In this document: positions 12,724 through 61,897 of the stretch, in pieces
Numbering within the stretch: the stretch's first letter is position 1
Layout: each line of letters opens with the position of its first letter
From: Candidatus Nanohalarchaeota archaeon
GTDB lineage: Archaea > Nanohalarchaeota > Nanosalinia > Nanosalinales > JAFCCC01
Length of the DNA: 64,000 bases
Reading direction: 5' to 3'
NCBI GenBank assembly: GCA_017610385.1
Contig: JAFCCC010000001.1
Location: forward strand, 1 to 64,000
Notes under the pieces: model-generated
Seen by the model: only the letters and a program-made list of their open reading frames with translations
Database searches by the model: none
Told to the model about the DNA's origin: nothing
Program-made: the position numbers and the translations under genes

Positions 12724-12758
12724 AGCTATCTTTTCTAAAATTTCATATATAAAATAAT

Positions 12759-13018
12759 GGGAATGCCAGAAAATGGACTTCTTTGAAAATCAGGTTAATC
12801 CATATCTTTTCTCTCCTCCGCGACCCCACAAACATTCAAAATACAGTTTATGGCTGCTCCCGTCAAGGTCTGACCCATTCGCTGCAAGTTAAATCCTGCA
12901 GGACGGAGAATCAACGTCCAGATATGGGCCATCTCCTCGAAGTAGCCTCTTCTCTGACTTCGACTCCGCTATAGAGGGTTTGCGGTAACAAGTTTCCCCT
13001 AAAAACCCAGTCTATCCC
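12759..13018 (-). ncRNA. ffs: archaeal SRP (7S) RNA
   Basis: helix 8 GGUCAGACCU-UGAC-GGGAGCAGCC; helix 6 CUGCAGG/CUUGCAG; paired ends GGGA/UCCC; TATA upstream. Confidence 0.88.
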
Positions 13019-13195
13019 AATGTAAAAATTCATCAGCATTTATATAACCTTTATGCCTGATTTTAGAAACAAATTTAAATCTGAATACAAAGTTATAGAA
13101 TAGGACAATGAAAAGTGATTGCCTTTGTCGGTGCCATTAACGGTCAAATTCTTTTATCAAGTTTAAAAACTAAAAAATCAATTAATTTAAAAAAT

Positions 13196-15111: not shown

Positions 15112-15363
15112 ATGGAAGATCTTCCCGAAGGCAAATTAATAGTATTTTGGATTGCGGGTTCTTTAGCAATCGTTTTTGGTGCATGGATTGCGGGTCATGT
15201 AGAAACAACCTTGGGTGTCACCACAGGAAGTTATGCATTAGCAATTATAATTGCAACACTATTGATAATGTTCGGAGGACTTTCTTGGATTGCGGTAGCA
15301 GTTACTGTAGCGCAGGAAAAGGAATTAGAAATAGAACGCGCAAAAAAACACAGAAAACATTAA
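15112..15363 (+). CDS. small 2-TM membrane protein
   Basis: two hydrophobic helices; TATA upstream. Confidence 0.75.
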   Translation: MEDLPEGKLIVFWIAGSLAIVFGAWIAGHVETTLGVTTGSYALAIIIATLLIMFGGLSWIAVAVTVAQEKELEIERAKKHRKH

Positions 15364-15527
15364 TTTTTATTTCTATAAAGATCTCTTTTTACCATTTCTG
15401 CAATATTCGTACCTAAAAATCCTTTAATAAAATTTACCTGTTTTGCTTTTTCTTCTTCTGTTGGGGACATATTCATAATTTTTACAGATTCCTATAAAAA
15501 TGTTCGTGTTATAGATAAATGTAATAT

Positions 15528-15763
15528 AGCCCGGTAGTGTAGTGGCCAAATAATCTTTTGATTAGGCTAGGCATAGGGGGTTTTGGGCGAACTTCCGTTC
15601 AAAACAGTGAGCACAGTTGTGCGGTGATCGGAAAAATCCCTCTGACTCAGGTTCGAATTCGAACTGCTGTCAGTTCGATCAATAAAGGCGACATTCATTT
15701 AGTGAAGTCTCCTTACCATACTTTTAATGACTGACACATTCAACGAAAATCCTGGCCGGGCTA
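15528..15763 (+). tRNA. tRNA-Gln(UUG) with three introns: 15550-15570 (21/22), 15587-15636 (37/38), 15658-15749 (59/60)
   Basis: spliced sequence AGCCCGGTAGTGTAGTGGCCAA|GCATAGGGGGTTTTGG|TCCCTCTGACTCAGGTTCGAA|TCCTGGCCGGGCTA folds as a cloverleaf; each junction forms a BHB. Confidence 0.92.
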
Positions 15764-15786
15764 TTCTTTTATTTTTAATACTTAGA

Positions 15787-15804
15787 ACTCCGAGCGCTCG
15801 GAGT
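15787..15804. repeat. perfect 18-bp palindrome (REP-like); related copy at about 58103-58122
   Basis: ACTCCGAGCGCTCGGAGT. Confidence 0.8.
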
Positions 15805-15843
15805 ACGAGTAACTGAATTACTCTATAGTGTTTACCTATAGAC

Positions 15844-15876
15844 CTCTCTGATTTGCGCGGTAAAAGGATGTGGGGG
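15844..15876 (+). repeat. intergenic motif, copy R1
   Basis: CTCTCTGATTTGCGCGGTAAAAGGATGTGGGGG. Confidence 0.65.
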
Positions 15877-15953
15877 AATCTGGTTTCGGAGTTTGAGGGG
15901 AAGCGTATGGATTCATTACAAAAGATTAAAAACCTTTAGAACAATGCTAAAGT

Positions 15954-16402
15954 ATGAGCCTTAACTATGACACTCTAAGGCGAACCGCATCTGGTATCTG
16001 GGAAAAATTAAAGTTCCATGTTATTTTCTTGCAGGAGCATCCCTGGCGGCTATCTTAGCAGGACTATCTGATTTAGATAAGACATATCGAGAGGAAATAA
16101 ATCAGAATTTAGTTAGAATGAGACTACTTGCAGATTCTGTAATTTCAACAACAATAAACTTAAATGGAAATCCAAATGATCTTACTTGGGAAGAACAAAG
16201 GGCTTTGCTATCCGGAATAAAATTTGAAGGGTTACAAATAGAAGGAACACCTATAGAAGTATTGCCTTGGTATTCTAAAGATGTTAAGGGATTTCAAACT
16301 CCAGAATATGGTCTGATGGTTGTGTACGGGAACAATAGACAAATTATATCCCCTGAAGTTGCTGAAGCATATCTTCAAGAAAATAATTCTTCTTCCAAAT
16401 AA
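15954..16402 (+). pseudogene. hypothetical membrane-anchored protein, frameshifted at an A-tract near 16002-16007
   Basis: MSLNYDTLRRTASGIWEK joins IKVPCYFLAGASLAAILAG...MRLLADS in the -1 frame. Confidence 0.55.
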
Positions 16403-39589: not shown

Positions 39590-39675
39590 GCCTTGGTAGC
39601 TTAGCTGGTAGAGCGCGTGGCTGTTAAAATTTTGCAGTAACCACGAGGTCGCAGGTTCAAGTCCTGCCCAAGGCG
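39590..39675 (+). tRNA. tRNA-Asn(GUU) with 13-nt intron 39627-39639 (37/38)
   Basis: cloverleaf; BHB CTGT/GCAG with TA|A bulges. Confidence 0.95.
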
Positions 39676-45370: not shown

Positions 45371-45508
45371 GCCACAGTGGCTCAATTGGCAGAGCAGCTG
45401 CTTCGTATTGTAATGAGGAGGACACTTATTCCGATAAAATATGAGGACGTGAACACCCCCCGAACAAGAATCAGCAGCAGGTTGTGGGTTCAACTCCCAT
45501 CTGTGGCT
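45371..45508 (+). tRNA. tRNA-Thr(CGU) with 65-nt intron 45408-45472 (37/38)
   Basis: acceptor GCCACAG/CTGTGGC; GCTGC-TTCGTA|A-GCAGC; U73; BHB with one mismatch. Confidence 0.93.
45413..45463 (+). ncRNA. box C/D sRNA inside the tRNA-Thr intron
   Basis: ATGAGGA-11nt-CCGA-6nt-ATGAGGA-12nt-CCGA. Confidence 0.8.
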
Positions 45509-47607: not shown

Positions 47608-47721
47608 GCGGGGGTAGCCAAGTGGTCAACGGCGATAGGCTCAAGTACTGAATTTGAGATCTGATTTAATGAAGAAACCTATTCCCATAGGGGTTCGTCG
47701 GTTCGAATCCGGCCTCCCGCA
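47608..47721 (+). tRNA. tRNA-Leu(CAA) with 31-nt intron 47646-47676 (37/38)
   Basis: acceptor GCGGGGG/CTCCCGC; long variable arm; ATAGG-CTCAAG|A-CCTAT. Confidence 0.93.
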
Positions 47722-61351: not shown

Positions 61352-61897
61352 ATGTCAATTACAGGGACGCTCGCACAAAATAAAGTTAGAGTTACAAAAG
61401 AAATAGATCAGATTCACTCAGAAAAATATTATGGAAAAATAATTTCTGATTCTGGAAAAGATGTATTAGAATTATCTCTAACAGAAACGATGCATCTAGT
61501 CAATAAAGGAGAATTAACATTAAAGGACGGTAGAAAAAAATTAAATAATGAAGTAGTTTACGAGCGATTCTGCGAAATCGATGCAGAATTTCCACAGAAA
61601 TACACAGTTTATGCGGATTTGCGGGAACGAGGATATATTGTAAAAAGTGGTTTCAAATTTGGTACACACTTTAGAGTTTATTCCAGAGGAGTAAACCCTT
61701 ACAAAGAAGGCCAAAAAGAACAAAAAGAACATACTAAATGGGTTGTACATGCAGTTCCTGAAAATTATACATTATCTTATCAAGAAATGTCAAGATCTGT
61801 CCGTTTGGCTCAAAACATTAGAACTAAAATGCTTTGGGCGGTTGTAGATTCGGAAAATGAAGTCACGTACTATGAGATATATCGTTTAAGACCATAG
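61352..61897 (+). CDS. endA: tRNA-intron (BHB) splicing endonuclease, catalytic subunit
   Basis: VYADLRERGY, GFKFG.HFRVY, EH, VRLAQNIRTK. Confidence 0.95.
   Translation: MSITGTLAQNKVRVTKEIDQIHSEKYYGKIISDSGKDVLELSLTETMHLVNKGELTLKDGRKKLNNEVVYERFCEIDAEFPQKYTVYADLRERGYIVKSGFKFGTHFRVYSRGVNPYKEGQKEQKEHTKWVVHAVPENYTLSYQEMSRSVRLAQNIRTKMLWAVVDSENEVTYYEIYRLRP

Follow-up and report, generated by a model that had tools for sequence, protein, structure and literature searches.

Which tRNA reads the commonest glutamine codon of a genome in which tRNA finders call no tRNA-Gln(UUG)? The window, that is, the whole stretch of 64,000 nt analyzed here, lies on contig C13 of assembly G000 (0.79 Mb, 32% GC, 93.5% complete). 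Its host writes glutamine mostly as CAA: 417 long ORFs contain 3933 CAA codons versus 1194 CAG codons, so that CAA accounts for 77%. From the letters of the window, a gene for tRNA-Gln(UUG) whose D-loop, anticodon loop and T-loop each contain an intron had been proposed at 15528–15763 (plus strand). Our analysis leads to the conclusion that this locus is very probably a functional tRNA-Gln(UUG) gene, and most likely the sole one, of an uncultivated DPANN archaeon with a small genome.

Gene structure

The gene was read from the sequence as four exons and three introns (Table 1). Joining the exons in a script yields a 73-nt cloverleaf that ARAGORN calls as tRNA-Gln(ttg). The acceptor stem is perfect with 7 bp, and the D-stem, anticodon stem and T-stem have 4, 5–6 and 5 bp, respectively. 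The joined exons are 58.9% GC versus 32% for the genome, and the gene carries no CCA. The call on the spliced exons, together with the junctions of the orthologs described below, bears out the proposed identity and the three intron-bearing loops, and the intron lengths read from the sequence are the 21, 50 and 92 nt given originally. Placing intron 3 anywhere from 57/58 to 59/60 leaves the product unchanged.

On the unspliced gene ARAGORN makes no call, and no Rfam tRNA model matches it at either gathering or permissive thresholds. A search of 15300–16000 against Rfam with permissive E-values returned two chance-level matches only; the introns belong to no known RNA family. Gene finders miss this tRNA-Gln(UUG) because three small introns, of the kind predicted to be spliced by proteins, interrupt the gene, and the expectation that standard annotation could overlook it holds for both ARAGORN and Rfam/Infernal. 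The assignment of the upstream A/T box as a promoter is a guess, because no common upstream motif was seen among 27 tRNA genes of the genome.

Table 1. Positions of the tRNA-Gln(UUG) gene, its introns and the related features discussed in the text (window numbering unless a contig is named).
Feature	Position	Strand	Description
Exon 1	15528–15549	+	Acceptor 5′ strand, positions 8–9, D-stem 5′ strand, D-loop
Intron 1	15550–15570	+	21 nt; between last D-loop nucleotide and D-stem 3′ strand (21/22 in our numbering)
Exon 2	15571–15586	+	D-stem 3′ strand, position 26, anticodon stem 5′ strand, loop positions 32–37
Anticodon UUG	15583–15585	+	Within exon 2
Intron 2	15587–15636	+	50 nt; anticodon loop, canonical position 37/38
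Exon 3	15637–15657	+	Position 38, anticodon stem 3′ strand, variable loop, T-stem 5′ strand, T-loop positions 54–59
Intron 3	15658–15749	+	92 nt; T-loop, 59/60
Exon 4	15750–15763	+	T-loop position 60, T-stem 3′ strand, acceptor 3′ strand, discriminator A
TATA-like A/T box	15491–15500	+	28–37 nt upstream of the gene; possible promoter
T-rich tract	15764–15780	+	Directly 3′ of the gene; possible archaeal terminator, by inference only
Candidate minimal K-turn guide	15596–15630	+	Inside intron 2; putative function
Guide strand	15596–15605	+	Pairs with 15580–15589, anticodon included
D′-like GUGA	15607–15610	+	One base after the guide strand
C-stem hairpin	15611–15622	+	4 bp, directly after GUGA
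GGU bulge, then GA (C′-like box)	15623–15630	+	After the C-stem
Hairpin module	15659–15682	+	5′ end of intron 3; 8-bp stem, CUGU loop, GAUCAA tail
SRP RNA	12755–13022	−	Archaeal
Intron-containing tRNA gene	45371–45508	+	
Intron-containing tRNA gene	47608–47721	+	
Intron-containing tRNA gene	39590–39675	+	
EndA	61352–61897	+	181 aa, alpha-type; PF01974 at 97.7 bits, sole match in the genome
tRNA-Gln(CUG) paralog (L002/L043)	G000:C9:11854–12039	−	21-nt D-loop and 92-nt T-loop introns at the same sites
tRNA-Gly(UCC)	G000:C3:8918–9175	+	Hidden or mis-called; 100-nt anticodon and 86-nt T-loop introns
tRNA-Tyr(GUA)	C11:129954–130131	+	Hidden or mis-called; introns of 32 and 74 nt
tRNA-Gly(CCC)	C12:15460–15632	+	Hidden or mis-called; 102-nt T-loop intron opening with a variant of the hairpin module
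tRNA-Lys(UUU) (L107)	G000:C11:148624–148787	+	Mis-parsed by ARAGORN; 37/38 intron with U34 guide and K-turn (by eye)

Orthologs and exon junctions

The tRNA-Gln(UUG) of G001, a related genome of another family, has the 37/38 intron only, and its D-loop and T-loop run continuously across the junctions predicted here. Exon 1 is 95% identical to the start of this ortholog, with 1 mismatch in 22 nt, and the BLAST match stops at exon-1 position 22. In L075, a metagenome contig, the D-loop and the D-stem are contiguous, with the junction exactly as predicted for intron 1. At the level of sequence comparison, the predicted exon junctions are fixed by these contiguous orthologs, beyond what the fold alone provides.

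A survey of tRNA-Gln in the order fetched 30 loci from 21 of its 70 genomes, from which 25 tRNA-Gln genes were parsed; L042 (not a tRNA), L036 (at a contig end), duplicates of counted loci, and three parses whose start fell on incomplete copies of the 5′ end lying upstream were left out. Introns are absent from 7 of the 25 genes, and most of the UUG genes have one intron at 37/38. The D-loop is a contiguous 9 nt in 17 of the 25 as well as in L075, while 7 of the 25, including both genes of this genome, have an insert at the D-loop site. G011 carries there a 20-nt intron of the same design as intron 1, the genomes of family f5 carry longer introns at the same site, and the sizes of such inserts in other families range from 20 to about 109 nt. 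T-loop introns are confined, among the 25, to the two genes of this genome, and the window gene is the only one of the 25 with three introns. When metagenomes were scanned, the strict intron-2 pattern gave no match and a pattern of the 5′ exon plus anticodon gave two loci. Partial copies of the first 16–18 nt of tRNA-Gln were observed 52–59 nt upstream of the full gene at three loci (L034, L035 and L039, in G022, G010 and G007, respectively).

The tRNA-Gln(CUG) paralog of this genome is interrupted in two of the same loops. The stem of its D-loop intron, GAAUU/AAUUC, is compensatory to the UAAUC/GAUUA stem of intron 1. The 92-nt T-loop intron appears identical in the UUG and CUG genes (BLAST 98% over 120 nt, with the mismatches located in the exons). 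That the T-loop introns are alike but the D-loop introns and the exons differ points to copying in recent times or to gene conversion. The tRNA-Gln(CUG) genes of five other genomes in the order are intron-free.

Splicing motifs

For each intron, the central helix was taken as the pairing of two 4-nt segments, one in the exon and one in the intron, whose last nucleotides lie two bases short of the 5′ cut and of the 3′ cut, respectively. The three helices named in the original prediction (GGCC/GGCT, TTTT/GAAA and TTCG/CGAA as DNA) are all present in the correct register for bulge-helix-bulge (BHB) motifs. The pairs are GU, GC, CG and CG in GGCC/GGCU of intron 1; UA, UA, UA and UG in UUUU/GAAA of intron 2; and UA, UA, CG and GC in UUCG/CGAA of intron 3. 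All 12 pairs are standard, and 3-nt bulges accompany the helices in register. When the introns were shuffled in 20000 trials, all four pairs were retained in 206 (1.0%), 2351 (11.8%) and 349 (1.7%) cases for introns 1, 2 and 3, respectively. The match of central helices and cloverleaf is more than chance.

The BHB central helix proposed for each intron is found in all three, but pairing potential for the complete hBHBh′ is found in intron 2 only. There the motif can form from the anticodon stem, UUUU/GAAA, the bulges GGG and AAU, and a 3-bp h′, and the homologous introns of G001 and L075 show clean hBHBh′ pairing. Intron 1 folds as a relaxed HBh′, in which GGCC/GGCU is followed by a 3-nt AAA bulge and the 5-bp UAAUC/GAUUA hairpin takes the place of h′; its 3′ site lies within a small internal loop beside the D-stem, with no closed 3-nt bulge. 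Intron 3, in cloverleaf-constrained and local folds, is a relaxed hBH plus hairpin. The T-stem serves as its outer helix and UUCG/CGAA as its central helix, with AAU in each bulge; an 8-bp hairpin follows the 5′ bulge directly, with no long-range h′, and the 3′ bulge is closed on both sides.

The computed ensemble favors the central helix of intron 1 only, at a pair probability of 0.99–1.00 in every splicing intermediate. For intron 2 the probability of the BHB helix is about 0 and a 10-bp alternative helix wins, the fold energies being −20.2 kcal/mol for the alternative versus −13.9 kcal/mol for the BHB, a difference of 6.3 kcal/mol. The central helix of intron 3 has a probability of 0 to 0.3, depending on the introns already removed. 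Since the ensemble disfavors the helices of introns 2 and 3, splicing would need folding that is assisted by proteins or driven by tertiary structure, two factors that these computations ignore. The fold probabilities can be taken as a hint about the order of splicing and the need for refolding; they are no evidence against splicing.

A recurrent hairpin module in intron 3

The hairpin at the 5′ end of intron 3 is found well beyond this gene. Matches of 23 nt at 83–100% identity occur in 11 of 60 related genomes, and one match in this genome lies at the tRNA-Ala leader of its rRNA operon (G000:C9:173–195). Seventeen distinct contexts were distinguished: 5 lie inside tRNA introns, in either orientation, 4 abut tRNA ends within 0–2 nt, and for the remaining 8 either a called tRNA stands within about 130 nt or there is no tRNA call. 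The intronic contexts are those of the two Gln genes of this genome, according to our parse, and three identified by ARAGORN. The module is conserved across families of the order and occurs in both orientations, and its association with tRNA introns and gene ends is confirmed. Its general form, seen at loci L005–L020, is 22–24 nt long with a stem of 6–8 bp; CA(U/G) and then another hairpin, variable in sequence, usually come next.

Such a module may serve as a ready-made inner helix, which on landing beside a suitable tetranucleotide would create a cleavable site. If this is true, a portable module would provide a concrete route to gaining non-canonical introns.

Intron 2 as a candidate methylation guide

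The alternative fold of intron 2 resembles a small guide RNA aimed at its own anticodon. The fifth nucleotide upstream of the D′-like box pairs with U34 (15583), and the helix of anticodon and guide appears in the unconstrained MFE fold. A detector was used that requires NUGA, a hairpin, GA behind three arbitrary bases, and a duplex that covers N+5 and has a minimum length of 6 or 7 bp; the target may lie at any upstream position. For this intron it reports a 10-bp duplex in which N+5 is the first anticodon base. Applied to 14 UUG genes with a 37/38 intron, the detector gave 3 matches, namely the window gene, G001 and L075, plus one non-tRNA row. Applied to 30 loci with a tRNA-Lys-like 5′ end, it gave the introns of 4 tRNA-Lys(UUU) genes (this genome, G001, G046 and G035) and of 2 tRNA-Trp genes. 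All 9 matches in tRNA introns are aimed at position 34. The C-stems covary across these introns, and the third base of the bulge, left free by the detector, is U in 9/9.

The K-turn hairpin alone was found at 7 distinct sites genome-wide versus 5–15 in ten shuffles and is not enriched. For this reason the signal consists in 2 of these 7 sites lying in the Gln and Lys introns with a guide in register. A loose guide/K-turn pattern, searched through the class (represented by the same 70 genomes as the order), occurred about as often as in a reversed control with the G001 tRNA-Gln as its only real match, and was dropped. By eye, no C box was seen about 12 nt upstream of the guide, and a single K-turn, D′/C′, is recognizable; intron 2 thus does not have the full C, D′, C′, D set with two K-turns. 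The CUGA of exon 3, located 11 nt after C′, was considered as a D box completing a full C/D RNA and rejected, since neither G001 nor L075 conserves it.

L7Ae, Nop5 and fibrillarin are all encoded in the genome. ELP3 (TIGR01211) gave no match at E ≤ 0.001 in the 93.5%-complete assembly; in the control for this search, 4 of 14 genomes, presumed to be the four archaea among them, exceeded the family cut-off. One PF01171 (ATP_bind_3) protein is located at C10:14479–15015.

Judged from these sequence features, binding of L7Ae by intron 2 has about an even chance of being real, and direction of Um34 by the intron somewhat less than that. A joint reading of the introns can be offered tentatively, with confidence a little short of even: the introns would not be equivalent, in that intron 2 would act as a self-targeting, single-K-turn guide for Um34 before splicing and the hairpin of intron 3 would act as a portable inner helix. 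Within the joint reading, tRNA-Lys(UUU) in at least three families of the order may carry the same guide device. As no Elp3 was found, intron-guided ribose methylation may tune the wobble uridine of split-box tRNAs in these reduced archaea. The guide conformer and the splicing conformer are mutually exclusive, so that methylation would be a checkpoint before splicing. If the guide is real, U34 of tRNA-Gln and tRNA-Lys joins the short list of intron-guided tRNA methylations, and one of these introns gains a reason to persist.

Glutamine decoding and hidden tRNA genes

The original prediction had raised the possibility of an intact tRNA-Gln(UUG) elsewhere. None was found in the assembly by four search methods: ARAGORN with introns allowed, the Rfam tRNA model genome-wide, an 18-nt pattern of the 5′ end with 2 mismatches, and blastn-short of the spliced product. 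The only other Gln tRNA gene of the genome is tRNA-Gln(CUG). A second tRNA-Gln(UUG) copy could be unassembled, because the assembly is 93.5% complete.

Across the whole genome, neither ARAGORN nor Rfam gave a tRNA for Glu, Asp, Met (initiator and elongator), Ile(GAU), Thr(GGU/UGU), Val(GAC/CAC) or Arg(UCU). With many isoacceptors uncalled by these tools, further multi-intron genes are likely. T-loop introns ending in CGAAAA are present in four more tRNA genes of this genome, those for Gly-UCC, Tyr, Gly-CCC and Gln-CUG. The structured scan that found the T-loop-intron genes returned 15 candidates, of which 5 are real T-loop-intron tRNAs and 10 are chance; another scan, for the T-loop motif outside called tRNAs, gave 137 matches, almost all in coding sequence, and was dropped.

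Several other loci were observed along the way. In the tRNA-Lys(UUU) gene L107, a second insert of about 44 nt was seen by eye at the boundary of the T-stem 5′ strand and the T-loop. The locus G000:C17:28093–28241 (plus strand) shares its 19-nt 5′ end with tRNA-Lys(UUU) and has a long D-arm insert, with a CUU anticodon loop downstream; it probably represents a tRNA-Lys(CUU) gene whose D-arm holds an intron, and ARAGORN calls it as Gly(tcc) with an intron. The same window also contains an archaeal SRP RNA and three further intron-containing tRNA genes of 138, 114 and 86 nt. On its contig, C13:49113–49218 (minus strand) matches the Rfam tRNA model and receives no ARAGORN call.

The sole decoder found here for the commonest Gln codon is invisible to ARAGORN and to the Rfam tRNA model, so counts of "missing tRNAs" in DPANN may partly reflect hidden genes. 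Missing DPANN tRNAs were raised as an open problem in the text available from Kaneta et al. 2018 (PMC5829648).

Splicing enzymes and proposed processing

The window itself encodes the splicing endonuclease EndA, with both the N- and the C-terminal Pfam domains. Its closest solved structures are the EndA proteins of M. kandleri, M. jannaschii and ARMAN-2. The catalytic Tyr-His loop is 7 residues longer than in M. jannaschii and contains a lysine-rich insertion, and 4 extra residues relative to M. jannaschii are present at the site aligned with the ASL loop of ARMAN-2. No second subunit or paralog was found below E = 0.1 when EndA was compared by phmmer with 2425 six-frame ORFs; the three best weak matches were inspected by eye as possible second subunits and rejected as not EndA-like. 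In the older literature, the plain alpha4 EndA was held to be strict. This strictness is revised for L3-bearing enzymes in PMC5829648, the accessible text of which describes an alpha4-type EndA bearing L3 in several DPANN lineages, together with more disrupted tRNA genes. By alignment, the insertion site of the present EndA is the site named L3 by Kaneta et al. 2018, and the position of the L3 loop in ARMAN-2 EndA is given in the available part of PMC3488258. One RtcB is encoded (G000:C9:33031–34329), whose nearest named relatives, at 72–74% identity, come from MAGs labelled Candidatus Undinarchaeota.

From the gene and these enzymes we infer a processing route and the order of its steps. A precursor of about 236 nt plus flanks would be transcribed. 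Intron 1 would present a pre-formed HBh′ motif, and intron 3 would recruit the T-stem and the UUCG of the T-loop as outer and central helix. Intron 2 would fold first into the duplex of guide and anticodon beside the K-turn, and would then refold, or be captured by EndA, before splicing. Cleavage by EndA would take place at six sites in three bulge-helix-bulge-type motifs, RtcB would ligate the four exons into the 73-nt tRNA, and CCA would be added after ligation, because the gene does not encode it.

Alternative explanations

The locus could instead be a decaying tRNA gene, broken by hairpin cassettes and unprocessed, with the working copy located in the 6.5% of the genome that the assembly lacks. 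The module that opens intron 3 does occur outside genes and in both orientations, in the manner of a DNA-level mobile element, the assembly is incomplete, and computed folding disfavors two of the three BHB helices. However, the four exons are all intact with a perfect cloverleaf, and the register of every insertion creates 3-nt bulges and a central helix of 4 bp. The CUG isoacceptor has the same construction, at least four other tRNAs have T-loop introns of the same design, and no other decoder was found for the 3933 CAA codons, so that we consider decay improbable.

It is also conceivable that the gene has two introns only and that the 21-nt D-loop insert persists after maturation, forming an additional hairpin of the D-arm, given how small the insert is and how relaxed the motif at the 3′ site of intron 1. 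The contiguous 9-nt D-loop of 17 of the 25 parsed genes and of L075 speaks against retention, as does the HBh′ geometry, which forms with a probability of about 1; elsewhere, inserts at the same site measure 20 to about 109 nt, sizes that would be intolerable as D-loops. Retention of the insert appears to us more improbable still than decay. That four GC-rich fragments merely happen to make a tRNA is hardly credible: its one point in favor is the lack of a call by standard tools, while each exon is matched 100%, in order and orientation, by the spliced model, close orthologs exist, and the 7-bp acceptor stem is perfect. The reading we prefer is that of a functional tRNA-Gln(UUG) gene from which all three introns would be removed.

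Comparison with known systems

The candidate guide in intron 2 resembles the box C/D guide in pre-tRNA-Trp of Haloferax volcanii and Pyrococcus (sR50), where, in the available text of PMC7994747, PMC11408192 and PMC3491384, a guide within the 37/38 intron pairs with its own anticodon loop. As in pre-tRNA-Trp, the wobble nucleotide stands at N+5 of a D-type box, and L7Ae, Nop5 and fibrillarin are encoded. The same sources, in the parts available, describe a C/D-like RNA in the tRNA-Met intron of Nanoarchaeum equitans. Unlike the pre-tRNA-Trp guide, intron 2 has one K-turn (D′/C′ with a hairpin C-stem) rather than the full C, D′, C′, D set. The accessible literature that was searched contained no report of U34 of tRNA-Gln(UUG) or tRNA-Lys(UUU) as the target of an intron guide.

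The sharing of intron sequence between genes also has a precedent. In a 2010 case cited in the available text of PMC4033280, near-identical intron sequence is common to different tRNA genes; in the present case, by contrast, the shared module is found outside introns as well, at tRNA gene ends and in both orientations. A tRNA gene of a red alga has three introns distributed over the same three arms, yet its host is eukaryotic, the endonuclease is another one, and the introns are unrelated.

Closer in lineage is the pre-tRNA-Cys(GCA) of ARMAN-2 (Ca. Micrarchaeum acidiphilum), likewise DPANN, with a T-loop intron in a relaxed motif and an EndA bearing loops near the active site (PMC3488258). In the text available from that paper, the ARMAN-2 EndA is a three-unit epsilon2 enzyme of about 390 aa with an ASL loop, whereas the protein found here is an alpha protein of 181 aa, and three introns in a single gene are not described.

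Up to three introns per tRNA gene are found in Thermoproteales, for instance in Pyrobaculum calidifontis (PMC8450103; reviewed in PMC4033280), and PMC4033280 also reports such introns in N. equitans, M. kandleri, Korarchaeum and ARMAN-1/2, as given in the accessible parts of these sources. The view that triple-intron tRNAs are rare and mostly described from Thermoproteales agrees with the available text of both papers. No description of a three-intron tRNA in DPANN or Undinarchaeota came up in the accessible literature searched. As three-intron tRNAs are already known from Thermoproteales, the present gene is a known kind of gene, here in a DPANN (Undinarchaeota-like) lineage. It shares with the Thermoproteales genes three introns of the protein-spliced type, one at the canonical and two at non-canonical positions, with BHB or relaxed BHB motifs, and related intron sequences in several tRNA genes. 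It differs in its host, a 0.79-Mb DPANN genome whose RtcB is nearest to Undinarchaeota-labelled MAGs and not a crenarchaeon, and in its endonuclease: Thermoproteales have an (alpha-beta)2 EndA with a Crenarchaea-specific loop, whereas here a single alpha-type EndA with an L3-like insertion is encoded and no beta subunit was found. The maximum of three introns, until now linked with Thermoproteales, is in this way extended to DPANN with a single alpha-type endonuclease, and the coexistence of three introns with such an enzyme supports the idea that introns can spread owing to loop insertions and not to subunit composition.
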